Shown piece after piece: positions 35,439 through 57,332 of a stretch of 57,441 nucleotides of DNA. The notes beneath the pieces are model-generated. The model made no database searches, was not told the DNA's origin, and worked only from the letters and a program-made list of their open reading frames with translations. Numbering within the stretch: position 1 is the stretch's first letter; each line of letters starts with the position of its first letter. Origin of the DNA: a virus. Lineage: Duplodnaviria > Caudoviricetes. The DNA lies in IMG/VR virus record IMGVR_UViG_3300020445_001222, positions 1-57,441 of that record. One strand, given 5' to 3'. Position numbers and translations under genes: made by a program.

Positions 35439-36315
35439 GTCCTACACGAATACGAGGATCGCACCAGATTTCAAAACCTGCTTCTTTCGCATCAAGACAG
35501 AAAGATACATCCTCCCCGCACATATCCTGCACTTCTCCTGAATCAAAGACTTGCATCTTAGGTGCGAACCATGGATAAGGCATTTCCTTATGCTCAAATA
35601 CTCCATTTTTAATCAGTAACCATCCAAAACCTGTATAGTCTACTGTAAAAGGTTTGCGTCTCTTCTGTATAGTTTCAAGAGTTTCATGATTCATAACTCC
35701 ACCATTGTTGCGGAAATCATCTTCCTCCAACCAGTGTGCAACTGAAGTAGTATGACCATCTTCAGTACAATACCAACCACCACAGATAGATCTTTCCTTA
35801 GTTGGATCAACATTAAGTTTCTCTCCAACTTTCTGTTTTGATACGTTTCCGTCTGCATCTAATACTGGATTACCATCCTTATCAATTATTTCCTGAATTA
35901 CATCTTCTCTAGTGACTGCTTCTTCTGGTACAGACATCAATACTAATTGATAGAACTTCTCAGAGTTGAAAACAATATCACTATCAATCCATAATTGATA
36001 ATCATATTTTAATTTACCATCCCAAGGTATCTGATCAGGACCACGAAGAACGTTTGCTCCTAAACATTTACATCTTGCAAAGTTCACCATTGAACTATAG
36101 TCTTGAGAAATCTGAATACTTGCTCCTGCTTGTACTAGATCAAAACATAGTTGAACGAATGACTTTAAAAAGATATAACTTACACCTCTACCAGGTAAAC
36201 AGAATACTACTGTTTTTCCTTTTATTAATTGTCTTGCTAAAGCATAATCCCATTCTTCCTTCTTTGGTTTAGACTTGACAGGGGTCTTTGCTTTAACGGT
36301 AAATCCTTTAGCCAT
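35416..36315 (-). CDS. Glycosyltransferase-like protein (GT-A fold)
   Basis: LWIDSDIVF DxD motif, YTGFGWLLIK, GEDVSFC, RVGHEK. Confidence 0.8.
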   Translation of the reverse strand: MAKGFTVKAKTPVKSKPKKEEWDYALARQLIKGKTVVFCLPGRGVSYIFLKSFVQLCFDLVQAGASIQISQDYSSMVNFARCKCLGANVLRGPDQIPWDGKLKYDYQLWIDSDIVFNSEKFYQLVLMSVPEEAVTREDVIQEIIDKDGNPVLDADGNVSKQKVGEKLNVDPTKERSICGGWYCTEDGHTTSVAHWLEEDDFRNNGGVMNHETLETIQKRRKPFTVDYTGFGWLLIKNGVFEHKEMPYPWFAPKMQVFDSGEVQDMCGEDVSFCLDAKEAGFEIWCDPRIRVGHEKSRII

Positions 36316-36367
36316 AATTACGTAACTGTTACATACACATCATACACTATTATATAGTGGTTGTCAA

Positions 36368-36580
36368 TCAATAAGAATGTTCATCTAAAGAGGGTTTTTC
36401 TTTATGCATTTCTTTTACTTCGGTATATGATAAGTCTTCTTCTTTATATGATGTATGCATTAGACCAACCATTGCTTTAAGTGTAATCCAAGTTATTCTA
36501 AAATCCTCTTCTTTTACTGAATGTAGTATGCATTCATCCTTTGCATAGAAATGATATACAGTTTCAGTGTCTTTAACCAT
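36368..36580 (-). CDS. Hypothetical protein
   Basis: 70-aa ORF coupled to upstream gene. Confidence 0.7.
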   Translation of the reverse strand: MVKDTETVYHFYAKDECILHSVKEEDFRITWITLKAMVGLMHTSYKEEDLSYTEVKEMHKEKPSLDEHSY

Positions 36581-36752
36581 CTTTCTTTTCTGATAAAATT
36601 ATTTCATCCTGATCGGATAAGTCTAATTGTAGCACAGTTCCTTCATACCAACCCATATCGTTAACCATCCACTCAGGTAAATCAATCATAAAGTTTCCAG
36701 TTATAGGATCGACTTCTACGGGCGAAAAATTTTCTGCGGAATTTTTTTGCAT
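36573..36752 (-). CDS. AbrB/MazE-like small DNA-binding protein (59 aa)
   Basis: MQKNSAENFSPVEVDPITGNFMIDLPEWMVNDMGWYEGTVLQLDL...; swapped-hairpin pattern; AGGAG upstream. Confidence 0.65.
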   Translation of the reverse strand: MQKNSAENFSPVEVDPITGNFMIDLPEWMVNDMGWYEGTVLQLDLSDQDEIILSEKKDG

Positions 36753-36876
36753 ATCATGTAATTCTCCTTAAGGTTTCGTAGAGTATTTGACTTTATGTAT
36801 AATGTTCAATATTTACCTCTCGAATCGGGTCGTTTATAGCTTAATGGTACCTATGGATTTTATATACGGGGGGCAT

Positions 36877-36900
36877 AAACAAACCCCCGATCAACGGGGG
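36877..36900 (-). terminator. Probable intrinsic terminator ending the early array
   Basis: Minus strand CCCCCG-TTGAT-CGGGGG followed by TTTGTTT. Confidence 0.65.
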
Positions 36901-36927
36901 ACTGCTGTTCCACGAACTAATAAACTT

Positions 36928-37116
36928 TCATGGTTCGTAGACGTAACCTGATACAGGACACTTAGGAAGTGAAGAACCTGTATAATGAGGAGACCAATAA
37001 CCTGCAAGTTCAACGGTTGGGAGTGCGGGTTGATCAGTTACATAGTTTCCCGTATTGGAAAGAGTAACCCATTTACGACCCCTGCTTTTGAGGTCGCTTG
37101 CCATAATCAATCTCAT
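36928..37116 (-). CDS. Hypothetical early protein
   Basis: 62 aa; ATGA overlap with upstream gene. Confidence 0.65.
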   Translation of the reverse strand: MRLIMASDLKSRGRKWVTLSNTGNYVTDQPALPTVELAGYWSPHYTGSSLPKCPVSGYVYEP

Positions 37117-37541
37117 ACTGCAAACCTCTTAACGCTGTGGTACGAATTGTACTGTCTGCAGATCCCACGAATCTGTTGATCAGTATCCCACTTGGTGTCG
37201 TCGGGGAACTGATTATCTAACGTTCTGATTCTGCTGATTTTCTGCCAAACGGATGCAGTACTGTGTTTTGTCTCTGGGAAGAACTTGAAGAAAACTGCCC
37301 GTGCTTTTTCCATGTCTGCCTGATTCAGTAAGTACGCATTCAACAGGCACTCTGTTTCTTCATCCGTGTAAGGTGTCTTTTTAGCAGATGCTGCTTTCTT
37401 TGCATCCTCTAAAAGTTGCCTTCCTTTTTTGAATAGCAGTCTCTCCTCCCTATCAAAATTGTGGAGACCGAATGCTTTAACCTGATTCTGTAGATCGTTG
37501 AAAGTGTCTACTGCGTACTGTTCGGTTTCAGAAAATGGCAT
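37113..37541 (-). CDS. Hypothetical early protein with Myb/SANT-like segment
   Basis: PYTDEETECLLNAY...HSTASVWQKISRI; directly downstream of a repeat promoter. Confidence 0.7.
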   Translation of the reverse strand: MPFSETEQYAVDTFNDLQNQVKAFGLHNFDREERLLFKKGRQLLEDAKKAASAKKTPYTDEETECLLNAYLLNQADMEKARAVFFKFFPETKHSTASVWQKISRIRTLDNQFPDDTKWDTDQQIRGICRQYNSYHSVKRFAV

Positions 37542-37610
37542 GATGAATGTTTTTGTGTATAGAACTATTATAAGGGAGGAACCCTACGAATAGAATGGAA
37601 AGTGGACGGT

Positions 37611-37778
37611 TTAAGAAACTGGCACTTCCCAACTTGATTTTTCTATGTATCCACTACACTCTGTGCAGTAGAGTGCCGACCAACTAAAATGGTAGACCTT
37701 GGAAACTGTGGAGCAATCAGGGCAAGTGATTTCTTTTCCACTCTGCCCTGCTCTGGTGTAACGATCAACTTTTCTCAT
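37611..37778 (-). CDS. Small zinc-ribbon protein (55 aa)
   Basis: CPDC...CTEC; ATGA overlap upstream; stop inside the 37602 palindrome. Confidence 0.75.
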   Translation of the reverse strand: MRKVDRYTRAGQSGKEITCPDCSTVSKVYHFSWSALYCTECSGYIEKSSWEVPVS

Positions 37779-38011
37779 ACCAAAGAATCCAAACGTGATT
37801 GAGGAACCTCTTTAAATTCTGGTAGGTCATCATGCCCATCTTTAAACCACTTGTTGATATGGCGGGAGGTCGTTACAGACCAGAATTTCTCAGTCTTTAC
37901 AAATCCTTCACCGAAGATGTATGCTGCAACAGGTGTGCGGTATGAAAACAAAATCCGTGCGTCGGGTGTTTCTACCTCTGTCATGTTGGAAGCGATTGGT
38001 GTAAGTTGCAT
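37775..38011 (-). CDS. Conserved phage early hypothetical protein
   Basis: LFSYRTPVAA...WSVTTSRHINKW; AGGAG RBS; promoter upstream. Confidence 0.8.
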   Translation of the reverse strand: MQLTPIASNMTEVETPDARILFSYRTPVAAYIFGEGFVKTEKFWSVTTSRHINKWFKDGHDDLPEFKEVPQSRLDSLV

Positions 38012-38080
38012 TGATGCTCCTATTGGTGTATGTATTCATTATACTAAAAAACCCCCAGAGGTTGGGGGTTGTGTGTGCCA

Positions 38081-38485
38081 TTATTTGAATTGGTTGCTGG
38101 TTGCCAATTTTGAAGGAAGTTCGACCAACTGCTGAACTTTTGGTTTTGCCTGTTCTACAAGTTGAAGAGCGTGGGGTCTTACAAGGTTGAATCCTTTTAC
38201 AAGATCAGAAACCAGTGCATTGATTTCATACTCATGAATTGCCCATCTTTGCTTTACATCTTGAAGATAGCGTTGGGGGGTAATCAGTCCTCTTGCACTT
38301 GGGCGTTTTGGTGCTTTGGGTGCTGCTGATTTTTTGGAGACTTTCTTCAGAGGTGTTTTGTTTGCCTCTGGTAGATTTACCGTAACACCCCCTGAGAGTT
38401 CAACGGTTTGTCTCTTTACTGCTGTTGCCTTTGGTTTGCGAGTTCTGGTCTTGCGTACCGTAGGTGCTTTAGCAGATGCTGTCAT
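38081..38485 (-). CDS. Basic hypothetical protein with K/R/A/P-rich N-terminus
   Basis: 134 aa, bounded by two repeat elements. Confidence 0.75.
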   Translation of the reverse strand: MTASAKAPTVRKTRTRKPKATAVKRQTVELSGGVTVNLPEANKTPLKKVSKKSAAPKAPKRPSARGLITPQRYLQDVKQRWAIHEYEINALVSDLVKGFNLVRPHALQLVEQAKPKVQQLVELPSKLATSNQFK

Positions 38486-38595
38486 AGGAATTGATTCCGA
38501 TGTTTACTTTTATATTATAGACATTAAAAAACCCCTTTAGGGGGTTTAGTGTGCAGTTTGGTAACTGTCTTTAAAAATCATTGAGGATTGATGAT

Positions 38596-38799
38596 TTACG
38601 CATCCTCAACTGTGTTCCAGACGGAGATGAATTCGCTGATCCACAACGCTTGACGTTCTGGGAGTAATCCAAGGTCTTGCTCATCAGCACTGCATGCTGG
38701 AAGGTTGTGTTTTTTGCAGTAGTCTGAATAGACGTCACAGAGGAAGGCGATTGCATCATACTGGTTGTTTGGGATTTGAAAAGGGTTGTTTGTTGCCAT
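38596..38799 (-). CDS. Hypothetical early protein
   Basis: 67 aa; ATG only a few nt after the -10 box, possibly leaderless. Confidence 0.7.
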   Translation of the reverse strand: MATNNPFQIPNNQYDAIAFLCDVYSDYCKKHNLPACSADEQDLGLLPERQALWISEFISVWNTVEDA

Positions 38800-38860
38800 G
38801 TCTGTATTATAAGCAAAAAAGAGACCCCTGTTAAGGGGTCTTGTACCACTTATTCAATTG

Positions 38861-38971
38861 TCATAGAACTGTGCCTTCTTCGGATACTTCAACAATATCC
38901 TCAAGAACTGCAAGGATTTCATTTCCATTGTCAGCGTTGTCAAGAAGGAATTCTGCGAATGCTTGTGACAT
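38861..38971 (-). CDS. Small acidic peptide (36 aa)
   Basis: MSQAFAEFLLDNADNGNEILAVLEDIVEVSEEGTVL; stop at edge of palindrome. Confidence 0.6.
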   Translation of the reverse strand: MSQAFAEFLLDNADNGNEILAVLEDIVEVSEEGTVL

Positions 38972-38996
38972 GATAATAGGAGTGTCGGTTTACAAG

Positions 38997-39189
38997 GTGG
39001 GACTTACAGGACGTAATTTCTCTGCTGAACAGAGACAACCATAGATCCTTGCCCTGAAAAAATGATGTGGGACTTACATCTTCAAAACTCGCAATGAGTA
39101 CAAGAGGTTCGTCTTAAAGAGATTTCCACAGCGTCACCAAAAATGGAATTACTGAATTGGTTCTCACCCGTGCCTTGCGTTTGCCCACA
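38997..39189 (-). ncRNA. Candidate two-domain structured RNA / long 5' leader
   Basis: Starts at predicted TSS; GTGGG...CCCAC closing stem; two units each GGGCAA...TGTAAGTCCCAC. Confidence 0.55.
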
Positions 39190-39238
39190 ATGTTATTATA
39201 CAAGTTTTAAGGGGACTTGTAACCCCAATTGTGCCAGT

Positions 39239-39367
39239 TTAAGAAATGTCCTCCTGTAGTCTGAAGGTTGAACGTGGTCTGATACAATCTACAATGAGAT
39301 GATACTCATCTCTGTCCTCGTAGATTTTAAGTAGTGCTTCATACACTTTAGGATCAAGCGGTTGCAT
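39239..39367 (-). CDS. Small hypothetical protein (42 aa)
   Basis: MQPLDPKVYEALLKIYEDRDEY...; stop inside palindrome. Confidence 0.5.
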   Translation of the reverse strand: MQPLDPKVYEALLKIYEDRDEYHLIVDCIRPRSTFRLQEDIS

Positions 39368-39626
39368 AAGACCTCCCGAATCTTTCTGCGTAGTATGAGA
39401 TGTTAACATAGTCCCTCTTCAGAGTACAGATTTGGACGATTTCCGCCAATGCCAACCAATGGTCTGATGAATAGACATCTGGATTGCCCCATTCAGAAAC
39501 TGCTATTTCATTTTCAATATCGAAAGATCCATTCTCTAAAGCGGGACAACTCATAAGAGTTCCATCTTCAGATATCCAGAATCCCATTCCAAATGAGTGG
39601 GAGAAAACGATTTCAGGTTTTGGCAT
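39354..39626 (-). CDS. Hypothetical early protein
   Basis: 90 aa; GGAGG RBS; promoter upstream. Confidence 0.75.
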   Translation of the reverse strand: MPKPEIVFSHSFGMGFWISEDGTLMSCPALENGSFDIENEIAVSEWGNPDVYSSDHWLALAEIVQICTLKRDYVNISYYAERFGRSYATA

Positions 39627-39690
39627 TTACCTCCGTGTGTATGGTCTTATTATAACCCCCACCAGTAGCAGTGGGGGAAAAAGTGGACAG

Positions 39691-40611
39691 TTATGCAACT
39701 GGTACAAATCGTCCACTGTTGAAGTTCGCATATGAGAAAATATGCCTATAAACTAATTTGTGCATCCCGTACTGATTAGTCTTTACAAACCCTTCACCTA
39801 TATGCTTATCATATCCTAGGTATGCCTGAACAGAATCATTATGGGTCAACCTACTCATGACCTCCCCTTTAATCGATTGTACTAATTGCCAGTACTTCAT
39901 TAACCCTGCATGGATCCCGTAATTTTTGGGATCCACTTCTCTACCTTCCCTATAATCTTTATTTATTTTTTTCTTTAACTCCTTCGCCGTTTTCTCATCT
40001 ACAAACTGGACCCCCTTCGCCATGTACCTGACAAAGTCAATTGACTTTTCCAACTCACTAATCGGTTCTCTTTCTCTGACCTCAGTGCCAACAAACAGAC
40101 ACTCATCCTGCTTTTCCCAATTATAAAAATAGGGAAACGACTTCATAGGGTGTGCTTCGGCATTTGCAAGATTGCCTTCACACTGCGTGGTAATGTACTG
40201 GGTATGTGGTGCAATTATTATTTTCTGCTCTACCACGTCGGGGAATTTATAGGTAAGGGTATTGGGTTTATATTCGTCAGAACCCCCGAACCCTATGAAG
40301 TCACCTTGAAAAACCATGTAACCTAAGCGGTGTGGTATGTGGTCTAAACACGCATGGAGAATTCTTGCAACTTCTCCACTGTGATTTGCGTCTATGTCCT
40401 CGTGTGAGTAATTGATCTTGATTTTGATCTTATTAAAGACGCTTTTAGTTCCCACAAAGAATTTGTGAGTTTTGGGATGATTGCCCCATACCACGGCGGG
40501 TGCACCATCATATTTCAATGAGGTATGCCCACCCCCTGTGAACCAATCCAACACGGATAAATCCCCTGTTAGGATTGTATCTTCGGGATGCTCTAGGTGT
40601 GTGTTTTTCAT
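39691..40611 (-). CDS. Ligase-like covalent nucleotidyltransferase-fold protein
   Basis: MKNTHLEHPED start; motif I KYDG, FQGDF, EGFV and KLV in ligase order. Confidence 0.75.
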   Translation of the reverse strand: MKNTHLEHPEDTILTGDLSVLDWFTGGGHTSLKYDGAPAVVWGNHPKTHKFFVGTKSVFNKIKIKINYSHEDIDANHSGEVARILHACLDHIPHRLGYMVFQGDFIGFGGSDEYKPNTLTYKFPDVVEQKIIIAPHTQYITTQCEGNLANAEAHPMKSFPYFYNWEKQDECLFVGTEVREREPISELEKSIDFVRYMAKGVQFVDEKTAKELKKKINKDYREGREVDPKNYGIHAGLMKYWQLVQSIKGEVMSRLTHNDSVQAYLGYDKHIGEGFVKTNQYGMHKLVYRHIFSYANFNSGRFVPVA

Positions 40612-40676
40612 ACTCTTAGTATAGCAATAAAAAACCCCCTCTTGGGGGTTGAGTGTGCCACTTTAAAGACTGTCCT

Positions 40677-40826
40677 CTATTGGAGTAATGAGAGATGAGA
40701 ACGAAGGAAATCCTTTGTGAATACATCTGTACCAAAGAATTCTTCAATGAAATAATCAACTGTTATTTCTTCCCTAGCACAGAAAATCTCAACGACTTTC
40801 CACTCAAGGTCAGTTAGTTCAGGCAT
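40677..40826 (-). CDS. Small acidic protein (49 aa)
   Basis: MPELTDLEWKVVEIFCAREEITVDYFIEEFF...; AGGAG RBS. Confidence 0.65.
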   Translation of the reverse strand: MPELTDLEWKVVEIFCAREEITVDYFIEEFFGTDVFTKDFLRSHLSLLQ

Positions 40827-40948
40827 AAGACTCCTTTGGGGTGTACTCTTTTAATATAAGCGATCTTATGCACGAATGGGAATTATGGGTGCCACTTTGC
40901 CAACTGGATTCAGGCTGGAATTTTTGCCAATAAAAAAGGACAGTTGGG

Positions 40949-41110
40949 TTACTGTCCGTTTGTGTAAGATCCCATCAGGCAATTGCCGTATCTTACTTCT
41001 GCGTATCCGTACTCTTCGGATAAGTCGAGGCATAATCCCCAACAGTCGTCAAGGTCAACAAATGAGGAATTCTCATAAGGTGCGGATGGGCAGTGAACTG
41101 AATATCTCAT
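40949..41110 (-). CDS. Small hypothetical protein (53 aa)
   Basis: MRYSVHCPSAPYENSSFVDLDDCWGLCLDLSEEYGYAEVRYG...; promoter upstream; stop inside palindrome. Confidence 0.7.
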   Translation of the reverse strand: MRYSVHCPSAPYENSSFVDLDDCWGLCLDLSEEYGYAEVRYGNCLMGSYTNGQ

Positions 41111-41180
41111 AGTTTTAAATTCGTGTGTATGCTATTATTATAGACACGCAACCCCCCCATTTGGGGGATTGGTGTACACT

Positions 41181-41369
41181 TTACGAATTGACCCTAGGTG
41201 GGTCAACCTTACAGTCGCCCGATGCAATCCCCAAAAGGACTTTATCAGATAACGAATCAAATGCCTTAAAATCGAAATCAGGTGGCAGACCTTGATCGAC
41301 AAAATATGCGATGATGTCTGTTAGACACTCATCCTCAGAGGATGAAAAAGAGTAATTGAATTTTGGCAT
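41181..41369 (-). CDS. Hypothetical early protein
   Basis: 62 aa; TGATG coupling; stop inside palindrome. Confidence 0.65.
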   Translation of the reverse strand: MPKFNYSFSSSEDECLTDIIAYFVDQGLPPDFDFKAFDSLSDKVLLGIASGDCKVDPPRVNS

Positions 41370-41524
41370 CAGTTCAACTCCTCGAATCTTTCAAGAGCAA
41401 ATTCTTCTGCCAATGAATTCAGAGTTTCAACGGATTCCTGAAGTCCAATTTGACTTGCTTGTAAATCTGCAAGCATCTCATCAAAAAAATCCTCTTTGAT
41501 GATTTCATTTTCTAGGCAACTCAT
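41369..41524 (-). CDS. Small highly acidic protein (51 aa)
   Basis: MSCLENEIIKEDFFDEMLADLQ...EEFALERFEELN; AAGGAG RBS. Confidence 0.7.
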   Translation of the reverse strand: MSCLENEIIKEDFFDEMLADLQASQIGLQESVETLNSLAEEFALERFEELN

Positions 41525-41644
41525 TCAGAACTCCTTTGGTGTACTTTTAAATTATAGTCCCCCAACCCTACGAATTGGGGGTTTAGTGGACAGTCTGGAA
41601 ACTGTCCATGGGCAGCTGGAATTTTTTACAATTCCAGTTTATAA

Positions 41645-42157
41645 TCATAAGTATCCTGCGAACTCCATTCCTGGTTCATCATAGAACCATTGAATTGAAA
41701 CCCTATCATATTTCTCTTTCAATTCTGCTGCAATCTCTTCGGGTGGACTCCATGCAGTATCAAAATGAATTACGCAGTAATCTTCATCATCATCCCCCCA
41801 TTCTATATGATCTCTGTGTACATCCCATTTAGTTCCCCAATTTTCAACTTGCCAATTATACCATCTATCATCATGAACACCAGTTGATTCAAATACTAAA
41901 GTCTTACTTTCAATCGGGTTCCCATTTGGGTGGAAGTACTGTTTTTCAACTGGTAATTCTCCAACTTCGCCACGCTTGCGTCCTAAGTATTCAAGATCTT
42001 CTTCACTTAAAGGTAGGTTCTTCCAATCGGGTGGTGGGAGAATCTTTTGAAAAATATTGTCTGATAGGAACAATTCCTTGATTTCTTTAAGTTGTTCTAG
42101 TGCCTCTTCGCTATCTTGACAGGAAAAGGTTACTCTATTGCTGCACCAATTTGGCAT
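41645..42157 (-). CDS. DUF1281/YubB-like ferredoxin-fold protein
   Basis: MPNWCSNRV, WYNWQVENWGTKWD, FDTAWSPP, YDEPGMEFAG; GGAGG RBS supports start 42157. Confidence 0.8.
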   Translation of the reverse strand: MPNWCSNRVTFSCQDSEEALEQLKEIKELFLSDNIFQKILPPPDWKNLPLSEEDLEYLGRKRGEVGELPVEKQYFHPNGNPIESKTLVFESTGVHDDRWYNWQVENWGTKWDVHRDHIEWGDDDEDYCVIHFDTAWSPPEEIAAELKEKYDRVSIQWFYDEPGMEFAGYL

Positions 42158-42393
42158 TAGTTTAACCTCCAATCAATTTTTAGATGATCATCATCATGGC
42201 AACGATCTAATGCATCTAGGTCTTCATTGCCATCTTCATCATAACAAGCAAAGACGAACTCTTCGCAGAAATACTCAACAGAGATGCCACCTAGTCGTTC
42301 ACATGCCCTGAGTATGTCACCAATTTCATCATTGGAGAGTTCAAGGTCATCAATGCAGAATGCAATGTCTTTTTCAAGTTGTTCAGTACTCAT
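42157..42393 (-). CDS. Small highly acidic protein
   Basis: 78 aa, D/E-rich; GGAGG RBS; ISVEYFCEEF motif. Confidence 0.75.
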   Translation of the reverse strand: MSTEQLEKDIAFCIDDLELSNDEIGDILRACERLGGISVEYFCEEFVFACYDEDGNEDLDALDRCHDDDHLKIDWRLN

Positions 42394-42474
42394 GATCCTC
42401 CTTGATTGTGTACATTCTTATTATAAGGGTAAAAGGGGGTCATGTAACCCCCTAGTGGACACTTTGGTTACTGT

Positions 42475-42945
42475 CTATCTTAGGTAAAGATATCCTCCTG
42501 CCCAATCTACGAAATTTGGATCTAGTAACTTACGTAGATCTGTTGGTTCGCAGAATGAGAATCTAACGTATTTTGTGTGTGGTGCCCTCCATGATGCGGG
42601 TTTGTATACGTTACCTAGGACAGATTTCTCTTTTCCTACGAACGAATGAACAGACCCATCGCGCCACTCATTCCTATCTCGGAAGGTGTCGAATTCTTGT
42701 TGTATGATCTTATAATACTTTCTTCCCACTTCAAAGCGGAACTTCATTAGGTTAGCAGTCCCGTTTGCAATTTCGTCTAATTGCTGCTGTGCAAAACTTT
42801 TCTCTATATCCCCACGCTCTTGATCAAGATTTCTTTCCAAGCACCTTTTATGGTAGTTCAGATAGTTTTGAGTAATGGCATTGCAGTAATCCTTTACGTA
42901 CTCCAAAAGGAAGTTTTGGTCTGTAGTTTCAGTGAGAAGAGTCAT
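42475..42945 (-). CDS. Conserved phage early hypothetical protein
   Basis: GRKYYKI, GSVHSFV, YKPASWRAP; start placed at ATG 42945, downstream of the promoter. Confidence 0.8.
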   Translation of the reverse strand: MTLLTETTDQNFLLEYVKDYCNAITQNYLNYHKRCLERNLDQERGDIEKSFAQQQLDEIANGTANLMKFRFEVGRKYYKIIQQEFDTFRDRNEWRDGSVHSFVGKEKSVLGNVYKPASWRAPHTKYVRFSFCEPTDLRKLLDPNFVDWAGGYLYLR

Positions 42946-43016
42946 GGGTGTGTTTGTTAACTTAGTTTTATTATAAGCGCGGTAGTTTAAATCCGCACTG
43001 AGTTGTATGCCAGTTT

Positions 43017-43223
43017 CTAATCTGTCCCTTCCCAACCCGTTACATTTTTTACTATCGTATCATATGATGTAATCTCATTATTATCTGCCACTCTATTCTC
43101 TTCCTCTTCAGTCTCGCACGGTACCGAGAAATTTACCTCAAACTCATCAGTGTAATCTTTGTAGTTGGTAATTTCCACAGGGCACTGGTCTAACCATTCC
43201 TGAAATTGCTCATATTTGGTCAT
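43017..43223 (-). CDS. Small acidic protein
   Basis: 68 aa; ATGA overlap; stop inside palindrome. Confidence 0.7.
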   Translation of the reverse strand: MTKYEQFQEWLDQCPVEITNYKDYTDEFEVNFSVPCETEEEENRVADNNEITSYDTIVKNVTGWEGTD

Positions 43224-43366
43224 GGTGAAATAATCTCCTCATAAAGATCATCAAATTCCTGAGAGTCCCAACCCTTGGCATCGGGCACGTCCATCTCATA
43301 TGCAAACCCAACTAGTTCAACAAGCATTTCTAATTGGGAATCGGTGAAGGTCTTAATGTGTTTCAT
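43220..43366 (-). CDS. Small acidic protein (48 aa)
   Basis: MKHIKTFTDSQLEMLVELVGFAYEMDVPDAKGWDSQEFDDLYEEIISP. Confidence 0.7.
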   Translation of the reverse strand: MKHIKTFTDSQLEMLVELVGFAYEMDVPDAKGWDSQEFDDLYEEIISP

Positions 43367-43417
43367 AATTCCATTGTATACTAAAAATCCCCCTTGAAGG
43401 GGGATTATGGGACACTT

Positions 43418-43672
43418 CTAGAAGTGGACTAATGCAGACTTCCAATATTGAAAGTCGGTTGTTGCTTTCATCTCATTGAACATTGACTGGACCTCAGAGT
43501 AATCAGCATCACCCCATTTAACCCCGTCGCCAGTTACTGGACACCCACACCCGATCATGTCATTCATGAAATCTTGAAATCCCGCAGATGCAAGGGCAAG
43601 GTTGTAAAGGGTCTCATCATTCTGAATCCAGAGAGAAACGTTCCAGGTCTCGTAGTTTTTCCAACCGTTCAT
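43418..43672 (-). CDS. Conserved phage early hypothetical protein
   Basis: NGWKNYETWNVSLWIQNDE motif; stop inside palindrome. Confidence 0.8.
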   Translation of the reverse strand: MNGWKNYETWNVSLWIQNDETLYNLALASAGFQDFMNDMIGCGCPVTGDGVKWGDADYSEVQSMFNEMKATTDFQYWKSALVHF

Positions 43673-43773
43673 GATGAATCCCGTAGAGTGTGATGTGTGG
43701 AAGTCCTTCCACTTCTTTATAATACCAATAAAAAACCCCCTGTGGGGGTTTAGTGGACAGTTTCTCAGGTGGT

Positions 43774-44043
43774 CTACCTGATATCAAAATGATTTACCCT
43801 GTCTTGTTGGGATGCATACTCATACCCATAGATCTCCATCAGATAATCACGGACCCTTTCTCTGTCGAGACTGTCGCCATTGCCCCATGTCATCCCAGGG
43901 AATCTAGTGTCTGGATTTTCCAAATCATCAAGATACTTGAGTGTGGCAAATGCTATCTCTTCCTTGCTGCATCCAAAATCATACAGACCACCTGCCCCAT
44001 AGAATGAGAACACGTAATCAACGAATTCCTGAAAGTTGTGCAT
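43774..44043 (-). CDS. Hypothetical early protein
   Basis: MHNFQEFVDYVFSFYG...GDSLDRERVRD; start set downstream of promoter. Confidence 0.75.
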   Translation of the reverse strand: MHNFQEFVDYVFSFYGAGGLYDFGCSKEEIAFATLKYLDDLENPDTRFPGMTWGNGDSLDRERVRDYLMEIYGYEYASQQDRVNHFDIR

Positions 44044-44191
44044 AGAGATTTGTGTATCTAGAACCAATATAGCAAATCCTCCAACGAATGGGACAAATTT
44101 GTGCCAGTTTGATCTTTGGCACATCTAGATCATCGATTGCATGCTGCGCAGCTGCGATTGTTGTAATTCTTATTATATTCTATCTCTTTTT

Positions 44192-44249
44192 CATCCAATT
44201 CTCGTACTGGCACACTCGCTGTTGCCCTTTTCTAGTATCATGATATAAT
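44192..44249 (+). promoter_or_regulatory. Inverted copy of the array promoter
   Basis: CCAATTCTCGTACTGGCACA, 29 nt, then TATAAT (44244-44249) with extended TG. Confidence 0.7.
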
Positions 44250-44282
44250 CTCGGTTAAACCCATACAAAGGTATGTATAATA

Positions 44283-44339
44283 TTCCAATTTTTAAAGTGT
44301 CATAATGTGCCAGATACCTAGGTGCACATATGATATCAT
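44283..44339 (+). promoter_or_regulatory. Second inverted copy of the array promoter
   Basis: CCAATTTTTAAAGTGTCATA, 29 nt, then TATCAT (44334-44339) with extended TG. Confidence 0.5.
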
Positions 44340-44539
44340 GTATACATGTAATCTAGATGCGACGTATCATATTATACATGCGCAGGCTCGTCGAGATGCA
44401 TGCAGTATATGTGCGCAGATATGTGCGCGTTCTCGTCGAGATGTACATACGTGACGCACATGGGCTCGTCGAGATTACATGTGTATATGCAGGCTCGCTC
44501 GACTAGATGCACGTATGTGTGCAAGCTCGTCGAGATTCA

Positions 44540-44707
44540 TCATGCATAATACTGTAATGAGAGCTCGTAGAAATCTTGAGAGTCTCGTCGAGAGTAATAT
44601 TCCTCGTCGAGATCATGTAAGTTATCGTGATTAGATCTAGAAGTCTCGTCGAGATCACCTTGAGTAGTATAGTCGAGATCGTACCAGTCGCAACAGTCGT
44701 CGTACAT
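44540..44707 (-). CDS. Acidic 55-aa peptide overlapping the repeats
   Basis: MYDDCCDWYDLDYTTQGDLDETS...; 16 D/E; sigma70-like promoter just upstream. Confidence 0.5.
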   Translation of the reverse strand: MYDDCCDWYDLDYTTQGDLDETSRSNHDNLHDLDEEYYSRRDSQDFYELSLQYYA

Positions 44708-44732
44708 AGTCGAGATGAATTAGAATACTTAT

Positions 44733-44761
44733 AGTATAGCAGGTTCTCGACTAGATTGCAA
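44733..44761 (-). promoter_or_regulatory. Sigma70-type promoter
   Basis: TTGCAA-17 nt-TATACT with extended TG; a repeat variant lies in the spacer. Confidence 0.6.
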
Positions 44762-44890
44762 GCTCTTCGAGAAAACTCATAGTAGTATATATGTACATAC
44801 CAGATCTTTGTGTTACAATTTAGTAACATTGTACTTATAAGATTACAAGTACTTTCCGATCCTGTGTGTTACGAAATCGCGACCCGTGGG

Positions 44891-44919
44891 TTGACAAACT
44901 CCGCGTCTCATGGTACGCT
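44891..44919 (+). promoter_or_regulatory. Sigma70-type promoter
   Basis: TTGACA-17 nt-TACGCT with extended TG. Confidence 0.55.
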
Positions 44920-45004
44920 CGCTAAGTCAACATAATATCTGAACATTAAATCATAATACTTTTTACCTTCTTTATGCACATATTATAACACACTATAAAC
45001 AATA

Positions 45005-45033
45005 TTGCAATGTACTTGTACTTATGGTATAAT
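45005..45033 (+). promoter_or_regulatory. Sigma70-type promoter for the plus-strand operon
   Basis: TTGCAA-17 nt-TATAAT with extended TG. Confidence 0.75.
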
Positions 45034-45126
45034 TAAAAGAACCAGTTATTTAGTCAGTTTACCAAAACCTATTCTCAATGTACTTGTACTTATAAAATAC
45101 TAATAAGTACAATCTATAAGTACAAT
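45008..45126. repeat. TGTACTT operator/iteron-like repeats
   Basis: CAATGTACTTGTACTTAT at 45008 and 45076; inverted ATAAGTACAAT at 45103 and 45116; further copy at 44828. Confidence 0.85.
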
Positions 45127-45195
45127 GATGGGTTCATCGGTAGAAGTTATTGGTATAACTGGGTTTTGCCCTTTTATTATGTGTTGCTCTCTAAG

Positions 45196-45714
45196 ATGAG
45201 AAAGCATAAAGTATTGAATGAAATAGAAGACTTAGAGGACTTCAGTGGTTATTCCATTGATACTGATGGAAACCTTTGGTCTCTTAAGTATAAGGTTCCT
45301 AAGTTAAGAAAACCTGTATGGTCTGGTAAAGATGAGTGTGCATATCTTACCTGTAGACTTAGAGATGATAACGGTAAAGCAAAGACTCTCTATATTCATA
45401 AGTTAGTTGCATTAGCATTTCTTCCTTGCGATGATCCTACCCGAAGGGTGATTCATAAAGATAAGAATCGAAGTAATAATCGCCTTGAGAATTTAGAGTG
45501 GGTTGCCAATATAAAAGAGAAGAAGAAAGCATTAGACTTTGTATTACAAGAAGAACTGGTAAATAAGATACAACGTATACATGTAGTTGCTCAAAAGAAA
45601 GGACTTCGTAATGTGTCGTCTGATTCATATCAGTTTACCACGAAGATGATCGAAGATGCTATTGAAGCATACATTAAAGAGTATGGACTACGTAAAATAG
45701 ATCGCAGTTTGTAA
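45196..45714 (+). CDS. NUMOD4/HNH-family protein with degenerate active site and extra C-terminal domain
   Basis: YSIDTDGNLWS, YIHKLVALAFL, VIHKDKNRSNNRLENLEWV; ATG 45196 preferred over TTG 45166. Confidence 0.85.
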   Translation: MRKHKVLNEIEDLEDFSGYSIDTDGNLWSLKYKVPKLRKPVWSGKDECAYLTCRLRDDNGKAKTLYIHKLVALAFLPCDDPTRRVIHKDKNRSNNRLENLEWVANIKEKKKALDFVLQEELVNKIQRIHVVAQKKGLRNVSSDSYQFTTKMIEDAIEAYIKEYGLRKIDRSL

Positions 45715-57017: not shown

Positions 57018-57073
57018 ATTATAGCATTAAAAAACCCCCTGTAAAGGGGGTTGTGACACTTTTTAAACTGTCT
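57018..57073 (-). promoter_or_regulatory. Isolated copy of the early-array promoter element
   Basis: Minus strand GACAGTTTAAAAAGTGTCACA, AACCCC..GGGGTT hairpin, TATAAT 28 nt away. Confidence 0.85.
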
Positions 57074-57332
57074 TAGATCTTCGCATTCTTGTCTTACTTT
57101 CAGTGTAATTTACAGGTGCCCATTCAACTTCCTTTGATTTGGTTTTTCTTAAATTAGCACTCTCTTTTTTTACAAAGGTACTAGACTCTTCCCTAACATT
57201 TTTTGCAAGGGATTGTCCACCATTTAATTCTTTCTCAACTGTTGGTGATTCAAACTGTTTTAGATAACCTTTTCTACTAAAAAGTTTATTCGATTGTACA
57301 GCATCCTCAGATGTTATTGGTTCATCATTCAT
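57063..57332 (-). CDS. Hypothetical protein
   Basis: 89 aa; overlaps cp12 stop; its own stop lies inside the palindrome. Confidence 0.55.
   Translation of the reverse strand: MNDEPITSEDAVQSNKLFSRKGYLKQFESPTVEKELNGGQSLAKNVREESSTFVKKESANLRKTKSKEVEWAPVNYTESKTRMRRSKTV

Follow-up and report, generated by a model that had tools for sequence, protein, structure and literature searches.

The DNA analysed here, hereafter the window, is a stretch of 57,441 nucleotides (nt) that makes up the IMG/VR virus record IMGVR_UViG_3300020445_001222 (Duplodnaviria; Caudoviricetes), and the element under study is a short palindrome (dyad) that recurs in it at the ends of small genes. The window is a fragment of a T4-like cyanomyovirus contig, with homologues of gp15, a neck protein, gp6, gp8, and gp25, and its tail and baseplate genes occupy positions 1 to 34.6 kb. 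Between about 35 and 44 kb lies a block of small open reading frames (ORFs) on the minus strand, nearly all of unknown function, which is a typical hyperplastic region. The G+C content is 39-41% in this variable region (36000-44000), compared with 31-36% in the structural and downstream parts. The gene at 39691-40611 encodes a DUF6267 protein, for which tblastn returned 466 phage records, including 367 of Synechococcus, 61 labelled ‘Cyanophage’, and 24 of Prochlorococcus. No cultured phage close to the window at the DNA level was found. Rfam models at gathering scores gave no match in the whole window, and a scan of the window for tRNA genes was likewise negative.

The dyad has an approximate consensus of GTGnCAsTT-N4-AAsTGnCAC and is present in 16 copies, each after a minus-strand gene; 15 copies lie at 37.6-43.8 kb and one lies at 57.05 kb. 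The pattern GGACAGT-N6-ACTGTCC, allowing up to three mismatches, was found 10 times in the window against 1.48 ± 1.41 times in shuffled sequences (0 of 100 shuffles reached 10), and nine of the 10 matches fall at 38551-43027 or at 57054. The 18-mer GnCAsTT-N4-AAsTGnC, required to match at 10 or more of 12 positions, gave 22 matches against a mean of 5.1 and a maximum of 11 in 30 first-order random sequences. Abundance in other genomes was assessed using a 22-mer with up to three mismatches and the reversed pattern as the control. Sites outnumbered control matches by 10 to 1 in the window, 7 to 1 in the related genome G001, 33 to 1 in the complete related genome G002, and 18 to 1 in phage P-SSM2. 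Identification of the dyad as a LexA, NtcA, or CRP box was rejected by comparison with the consensus sequences of those boxes.

The dyad is one component of a larger module. On the sense (minus) strand, the order of parts in each unit is the gene end, the dyad, usually a GC-rich hairpin with a run of T, a -10 box, a short leader with a Shine-Dalgarno sequence, and the ATG of the next gene. Spacing was surveyed in the window and 80 related contigs, which together supplied 432 orientation-unique instances of the dyad, with the -10 box defined as TATAAT with at most one mismatch. The box starts 33, 34, or 35 nt after the ACTG of the dyad in 39, 55, and 40 instances, respectively, and every other offset accounts for 0 to 10. 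All 13 window dyads with a -10 box, which represent 13 of the 14 strong window dyads, have it at 33-35 nt, and the distance is constant with or without the hairpin. Terminator-like sites number 18 in the window against 5.8 ± 2.4 in shuffles and are located mostly between the dyad and the -10 box. The stretch separating these two parts has a mean folding energy of -8.5 kcal/mol, compared with -4.1 kcal/mol after shuffling, and folds at -8 kcal/mol or below in 65 of 134 elements. A -35-like hexamer is present in the hairpin loop of three window copies, and a weak TTG motif stands at the fitting place in orthologous promoters of DUF6267 genes.

Conservation was most readily followed at the DUF6267 gene. 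Among 108 unique upstream regions from viral and metagenomic contigs, 91 contain CAsTT-N4-AAsTG at 8 or more of 10 positions, and 82 of these 91 dyads sit 59-61 nt before the ATG even though the proteins are only about 50% identical. The dyad consensus of this promoter set is tgtGaCAgTT-N4-AAgTGgCACA. The -10 box of the same gene (TATACT, CATACT, or TATAAT) lies six nt before the ATG with no Shine-Dalgarno sequence, both in the window (40611-40623) and in 108 related loci, including very distant ones, an arrangement that suggests a leaderless messenger RNA (mRNA). A conserved motif, CATACAC(A), starts 5-6 nt after the -10 box, approximately at the expected transcription start, in 25-31 of the 134 elements, for example at 39630-39648, 41118-41136, and 42401-42419.

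All copies in the window are on the minus strand. The first dyad (37602-37625; score 13/16) has a spacer of 5-6 nt, contains the stop codon of gene 37611-37778, and has its -10 box at 37567-37572. A weak dyad at 38075-38096 (score 10/16) contains the stop of gene 38081-38485, with a terminator hairpin at 38050-38070 and a -10 box at 38038-38043. The module at 38514-38571 is complete, with the dyad at 38550-38571, a terminator hairpin at 38529-38547, and the -10 box at 38514-38519; a cassette indel relative to locus L001, described below, lies here. The module at 38806-38864 consists of a dyad at 38843-38864, which the stop of gene 38861-38971 meets at the edge, a hairpin at 38822-38841 with the -35-like hexamer TTAACA in its loop, and a -10 box at 38806-38811. 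In the modules at 39195-39252 (dyad 39231-39252, -10 box 39195-39200) and 39649-39705 (dyad 39684-39705, -10 box 39649-39654), the dyad centre holds the stops of gene 39239-39409 and of the DUF6267 gene 39691-40611, respectively. The module upstream of the DUF6267 gene (40618-40676) has its dyad at 40655-40676, a hairpin at 40633-40650, and the -10 box TATACT at 40618-40623, six nt before the ATG, and gene 40677-40826 stops at its edge. A module that has no GC-rich hairpin (40853-40910) comprises a dyad at 40889-40910 and the -10 box TATATT at 40853-40858, and the copy at 40937-40958 is a perfect 7-base-pair (bp) palindrome followed by T6 that has no -10 box, holds the stop of gene 40949-41110, and scores as terminator-like by itself.

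Seven further modules complete the set. The module at 41137-41194 (dyad 41173-41194, -10 box 41137-41142) has the stop of gene 41181-41369 in its centre. At 41551-41608 (dyad 41587-41608, hairpin 41559-41581, -10 box 41551-41556), the stop of the upstream gene precedes the dyad by 41 nt. The module at 42420-42477 (dyad 42456-42477, -10 box 42420-42425) carries the -35-like hexamer GTTACA in its hairpin loop and the stop of gene 42475-42945 at its edge. Stops lie in the dyad centre at 42970-43028 (dyad 43007-43028, -10 box 42970-42975, gene 43017-43223) and at 43373-43430 (dyad 43409-43430, hairpin 43386-43406, -10 box TACAAT 43373-43378, gene 43418-43672), and at the dyad edge at 43719-43775 (dyad 43754-43775, hairpin 43733-43751, -10 box TATTAT 43719-43724, gene 43774-44124). 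An isolated module outside the variable region, at 57018-57074 (score 14/16), has its dyad at 57053-57074, a GC-rich hairpin, a -10 box at 57018-57023, and a stop at 57063 in the centre.

The sequence-only reading of the window had drawn attention to the stop codons of unrelated genes inside the palindrome. Our own gene calls place the stops of nine genes (37611, 38081, 39239, 39691, 40949, 41181, 43017, 43418, and 57063) in the dyad centre and those of four genes (38861, 40677, 42475, and 43774) at its 5' edge, at -5 to -1, and agree with the C-termini quoted there (EVPVS, FVPVA, LVHF, EDIS, and EGTD). Two stops missing from that list lie upstream of the dyad, by 29 nt for gene 38596 and 41 nt for gene 41645. 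In related contigs, 130 dyad-plus-promoter elements with an upstream ORF of 35 or more codons were scored; stops fell at positions 6-12 of the 20-mer in 50, at -8 to 0 in 31, further upstream in 10, and downstream in 39, some of which may be wrong frames given that the frame was taken from the longest ORF. The annotated genes of P-SSM2 include PSSM2_100, whose stop codon is inside a dyad, and PSSM2_153, whose stop codon is at the edge of one. In the two frames that a gene leaves unused, the dyad zone contains stops at a rate of 0.35 per frame, which equals the antisense control (0.35), so the dyad is not designed as a stop, and a function as a universal built-in three-frame stop was rejected. 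The conserved arm letters cannot spell a stop, which leaves the spacer or the position just before the first conserved G. Because the genome is packed and only the 4-nt spacer or the bases before that G can hold TAA, TAG, or TGA, the final residues of the preceding protein are specified by the left arm of the dyad. The stop positions are explained by the close packing of each gene against the fixed promoter element that follows it. The stops reflect compaction, which had been put forward at the outset as the alternative to an integron-like arrangement.

That earlier proposal was that the palindrome may be the crossover point at which promoter-plus-gene units are gained, lost, or reordered. Gain, loss, and movement of such units were confirmed by comparison with loci L001, L003, and L005, whereas the placement of the crossover at the palindrome was not borne out, since indel junctions are scattered. 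The mobile units of the variable region consist of a promoter plus one or two genes. In relatives of about 80% identity, the order of the backbone is kept, the cassettes between backbone genes differ, and some homologues have moved; homologues of genes 41181-41369, 38596-38799, and 37611-37778 occupy other positions in L003 and L005. Locus L001, which is 97-99% identical to the window, contains one extra cassette with a 52-codon ORF between two module copies, and the cassette's own stop lies in a dyad centre. The single module of the window is a chimera of these two copies, in that the dyad side fits the first L001 copy at 28 of 30 positions and the second at 14 of 30, and the -10 side fits the second. 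The crossover was narrowed down to 10 nt of the terminator hairpin, within its 5' arm.

Breakpoints were then mapped among relatives generally, using 235 sequence pairs with long matches of 92% identity or more, which gave 84 indels and 24 clean junction contexts from approximately 19 events. Twelve contexts lie within a module (six touching the dyad), another 11 coincide with stop/start or Shine-Dalgarno overlaps where there is no module, and the remaining one is ambiguous; 18 of the 24 are thus off the dyad, and junctions are not concentrated at the palindrome. Two of the six that touch the dyad are confined to it (28 nt and 14 nt). Overlaps at the junctions range from 0 to 66 nt, which is the pattern of homology- or microhomology-driven exchange. 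Contigs of four sequencing runs covering 36000-45500 were also inspected; most joints have sides of 21-30 letters at 90% likeness, a class that is often foreign, stretches without coverage and an RNA run with a share of 0.05 were given no weight, and only one joint was used, as a presence/absence polymorphism, namely a contig of run X2 in which the hairpin at 40638 is joined to the dyad at 40941 with 19 other letters between. The observation that no recombinase is visible in the window was corroborated, with no match to PF00589 or PF00239. A search beyond the window, in G001 (105 kb), G002 (234 kb, 100% complete), and P-SSM2, found no tyrosine- or serine-type recombinase by the same two models, which recovered 14 of 14 and 12 of 14 reference-genome controls. 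No two of 14 window copies have the same central 8-mer (one pair shares its 4-mer), so copies exchanging strands would find no homology in the spacer.

With a module every 0.3-1 kb or so, the copies would offer short patches of homology to the general recombination system of the phage, and cassettes would be gained, lost, and moved as in the PeSL elements of other T4-like phages. Cassettes do move, probably through homology in the whole module, and the palindrome has no special part in this.

Two other features of the region were recorded. The first is a stretch of about 200 nt with no ORF (38975-39194) that follows the promoter at 39195 and precedes a 36-codon gene. Within it, 39000-39067 matches intergenic sequences of P-SSM2 and of single-cell marine virus records at 94-98% identity, reaches a depth of 155 in run X2 against about 13 nearby, and differs in sequence in L001. 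A match to the twister-P3 model in 38900-39260 was below the Rfam threshold, appeared only at an E-value threshold, overlapped a terminator, and was treated as chance. Possible interpretations of the stretch are that it serves as a conserved leader, encodes a small RNA, or is a mobile piece of small size. The second feature is a cluster of direct repeats of 14-28 nt around CTCGTCGAGAT, at 44300-44800 and 45166-45714, with at least five copies spaced 19-61 nt apart; it adjoins a plus-strand HNH endonuclease gene, and relatives have small insertions there.

A link to the host emerged from an exact 24-mer scan of bacterial genomes, all results of which refer to the matches listed. These include many Acidobacteriota and several cyanobacteria. 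The cyanobacterial 24-mers among the matches listed lie upstream of a -35/-10 promoter that drives the Rfam Cyano-1 RNA (at least four matches over the gathering score), which we take to be the Yfr2 small RNA (sRNA) family. In Anabaena (L187, 7006-7297) and Nodularia (L210, 1304-1443), the Cyano-1 genes are located just downstream of purH, and the Anabaena locus contains the gene twice in tandem, with a separate dyad and promoter for each copy. Host promoters were surveyed in 151 genomes sampled from the class together with further copies, which provided 45 unique regions upstream of Cyano-1 genes. The forward half-site GTGnCAsTT, matched at 7 or more of 8 positions, starts at -63 to -57 in 20 of the 45 regions, against a background of 3 in 2520 positions, and the reverse half-site peaks at -51 to -45. 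The half-site precedes the -10 box by about 52 nt in the phage, compared with 53 nt in Anabaena.

In small genomes resembling those of picocyanobacteria, the yfr2 genes carry AACTGTCAC-N1-2-GTGACAGTT. This fits CGRE1 in the lengths, flanks, and spacings given in the text of Lambrecht 2018 (PMC6191309); statements on this and the other cited papers are limited to the portions of their text that were available. CGRE1 is described as an everted palindrome of 21 or 22 nt with GTTG or GTTA flanks 13-14 nt apart, through which PMM1637, a GntR-type activator of the PlmA family, binds and activates transcription, as established using an electrophoretic mobility shift assay and a green fluorescent protein reporter for MED4 yfr2 and yfr4 only (PMC6191309). 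Induction of yfr2 occurs under high light and in late nitrogen starvation (PMC6191309). A GntR domain was encoded by none of the phages searched and was found once in a 1.6-Mb host-like genome.

Taken together, these data make it reasonably probable that the palindrome is not a crossover site and instead acts as the upstream operator of a phage promoter family, an operator shared with host yfr2 promoters, with a host factor recognising it as part of a dyad-terminator-promoter module; the anatomy and conservation of the elements point this way. A host PlmA-type regulator, or a factor of the same specificity, would bind the phage dyads, presumably as an activator, and binding would couple expression of the variable-region genes to the host conditions that induce yfr2, namely high light and late nitrogen starvation. 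The binder is probably the PlmA-type regulator itself, judging from the half-site common to phage and host promoters.

Several observations weigh against this operator reading. A good -10 box at the right distance accompanies only 134 of approximately 216 palindromes, matches to a canonical -35/-10 pair are not enriched (26 against 23.5 ± 4.3), and 43 of the 134 stretches between dyad and -10 box fold more weakly than -5 kcal/mol, so terminators are not universal. Phage Syn9 has few sites, with one strict match and, at a relaxed threshold, 13 against 4 in the control. On the host side, a clear inverted partner accompanies the forward half-site at only seven of the 20 promoters that carry it, and an everted partner does so at five. 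The half-site is common to host and phage, but its arrangement differs: CGRE1 is everted (AACTGTCAC-N1-2-GTGACAGTT), whereas the dyads of the phage and of many other cyanobacteria are inverted with a 4-nt spacer. According to the authors of PMC6191309, CGRE1 is apparently restricted to marine picocyanobacteria, and in the text available it is placed nowhere else in the MED4 genome. The 24-mer is common upstream of unrelated small ORFs in Acidobacteriota, among the matches listed, so the pattern is not unique to cyanobacteria. Finally, the transcription start sites and timing at the dyad promoters are assumed only. The acidobacterial dyads (Terracidiphilus, Pyrinomonadaceae, and others; L163-L241) often lie, among the matches listed, 36-45 nt upstream of small ORFs with no Pfam match. 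In 16 ORFs neighbouring them there were two matches to outer membrane protein beta-barrels and no regulator, and these dyads may be the operator of an unrelated regulon.

A promoter operator with a binder other than a PlmA-type GntR protein, either an early or injected phage protein or another host factor, acting as an activator or as a shut-off repressor, is unlikely in our estimation. The inverted N4 geometry of the phage dyad, as opposed to the everted CGRE1 that was assayed, speaks for such a binder, as does the position of the dyad centre, calculated from the spacing data at about -53.5. P2 Ogr-type phage activators use a dyad near -55, which is a similar position. The region also encodes small proteins of unknown function, among them a 55-amino-acid zinc-ribbon protein and, as a weak lead, a possible Myb-like protein. 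Set against this, the same dyad geometry is present at chromosomal Cyano-1 promoters of uninfected cyanobacteria, so a host factor for the dyad exists, and neither phage protein is as widespread as the dyad: the zinc-ribbon homologue was found in only two of the eight closest loci (L001 and L005), and none of 50,697 phage records contains a homologue of the Myb-like candidate. The latter is a 142-amino-acid protein (37113-37541) that has no Pfam or PHROG match, gives weak language-model leads (scores 0.78-0.80) to clusters of viral Myb-like DNA-binding proteins, and is found in four close metagenomic relatives. With its leads weak and homologues absent from the cultured phages searched, it was dropped as a phage-encoded dyad binder.

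A role for the dyad in RNA, where a stem-loop closing the upstream mRNA at its 3' end would serve as a stabiliser, processing site, or part of the terminator and the symmetry in DNA would be secondary, is quite improbable. The dyad is indeed transcribed directly ahead of the terminator, its 26-mers fold at -5.6 kcal/mol against -2.4 kcal/mol for shuffled sequence, and the copy at 40938-40957 forms a perfect 7-bp stem before T6 with a terminator score. However, at the two variable arm positions of the DUF6267 promoter set, there are 28 and 23 Watson-Crick pairs where 41.4 and 36.5 are expected, and in a second data set there are 62 and 58 where 74.6 and 69.5 are expected. Variable positions therefore pair less often than independence predicts, and base pairing is not selected. 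The two halves also differ systematically, with the distal half favouring GACAG and the proximal half the GCCAC type, and in the host the element is found ahead of sRNA promoters rather than at the 3' ends of mRNAs.

The dyad as a site-specific recombination site, attC-like or with a dif/lox-like core, at which a recombinase encoded elsewhere moves cassettes, has the inverted arms around a short variable spacer, the stop overlap seen in many integron cassettes, the turnover of cassettes among relatives, the six contexts that touch the dyad, and the X2 joint in its favour, but it is largely refuted and scarcely credible given the absence of both recombinase families from the window, G001, G002, and P-SSM2, the crossover in a hairpin arm in the window's own lineage, the 18 contexts off the dyad (11 with no element at all), the 14 differing central 8-mers, a promoter in every unit, and a fixed -10 spacing and conservation at one orthologous promoter that such a site would not be expected to have.

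The operator reading can be extended, tentatively and with slightly less than even confidence, to the proposal that T4-like cyanophages place dozens of genes of the variable region under the PII-PipX-PlmA status regulator of the host by means of a copied yfr2 dyad, and that the same module doubles as a portable linker for cassette exchange. If so, host sensing and genome plasticity would rest on one element of 60-75 nt, phage gene expression would be linked to the light and nitrogen status of the host, and the reach of PMM1637/PlmA would extend beyond yfr2, its only tie so far. T4-like cyanophages lack the T4 regulators MotA, AsiA, Alt, and Mod, according to the part of a review that was available (PMC2984593), and the dyad common to host yfr2 promoters offers a concrete candidate regulator for the question of how their early and middle genes are controlled. 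Literature searches found no description of the dyad itself, and in the portions of text available none that links CGRE1, PlmA, or PMM1637 to phage promoters; the main cyanophage transcription studies and their supplements were outside this coverage, so an earlier description of the motif is possible.

Among known systems, integron attC sites resemble the dyad in being imperfect palindromes at the 3' ends of small unrelated genes, often over the stop, in units that vary in presence and order. They differ in several respects. There is no integrase here (PF00589: none in the window, G001, G002, or P-SSM2); the dyad is conserved in sequence with no arm covariation, whereas attC is conserved in its folded structure; each unit has its own promoter, whereas integron cassettes are promoterless and read from one common promoter; and the junctions are not at one fixed point of the site. 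Sites with a dif/lox-type core differ in that partners share an identical spacer, whereas the spacers of the window dyads all differ. Cyanophage promoters that carry the sites of host nutrient-status regulators, namely PhoB boxes and NtcA sites, provide a precedent for a phage promoter with the site of a host regulator, as predicted here. The regulator and motif differ from those cases, and the dyad recurs at over a dozen promoters, which serve genes of unknown function, and is fused to a terminator.

CGRE1 (PMC6191309) and the phage dyad share the half-site GTGACAGTT, a palindromic form of approximately 21-24 bp, and the same place just upstream of the -35 region of a sigma-70-type promoter, and the published factor activates transcription. 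The everted geometry of 21-22 nt with GTTG/GTTA flanks is not that of the phage dyad, the inverted form of which occurs at the Cyano-1 promoters of other cyanobacteria, and in the text available CGRE1 is reported only at yfr2 genes and never in phages.

The closest parallel in gene organisation is with the PeSL elements, which are composites of a terminator and a promoter that separate the small ORFs of hyperplastic regions in T4-like phages (Arbiol 2010, PMC2839356; Comeau 2014, PMC4122927). The window likewise has a terminator stem-loop joined to a -10 promoter between small ORFs, in a part order that differs from the published one: the PeSL stem-loop is upstream of an AT-rich tract and the -35 box, and here the hairpin lies between the dyad and the -10 box. 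In the published phages, indels between close relatives are flanked by the elements with crossovers spread over the element, including the stem-loop (PMC2839356; PMC4122927), and the L001 indel is similarly bounded by elements with the crossover inside; 12 of the 24 junction contexts are located in an element. The authors themselves liken the arrangement to integrons. Mini-circles are expected of PeSL cassettes during infection, and no circular junction was seen in the assembled contigs inspected here, which would not show one reliably. Cyanophage S-PM2 is described, in the text available, as having only a low density of PeSL-type elements (PMC4503421), and the region analysed here represents PeSL-type cassette shuffling at high density in a marine cyanophage lineage, with a conserved dyad of 22-24 bp as an extra component that is absent from the available PeSL descriptions (PMC2839356; PMC4122927).

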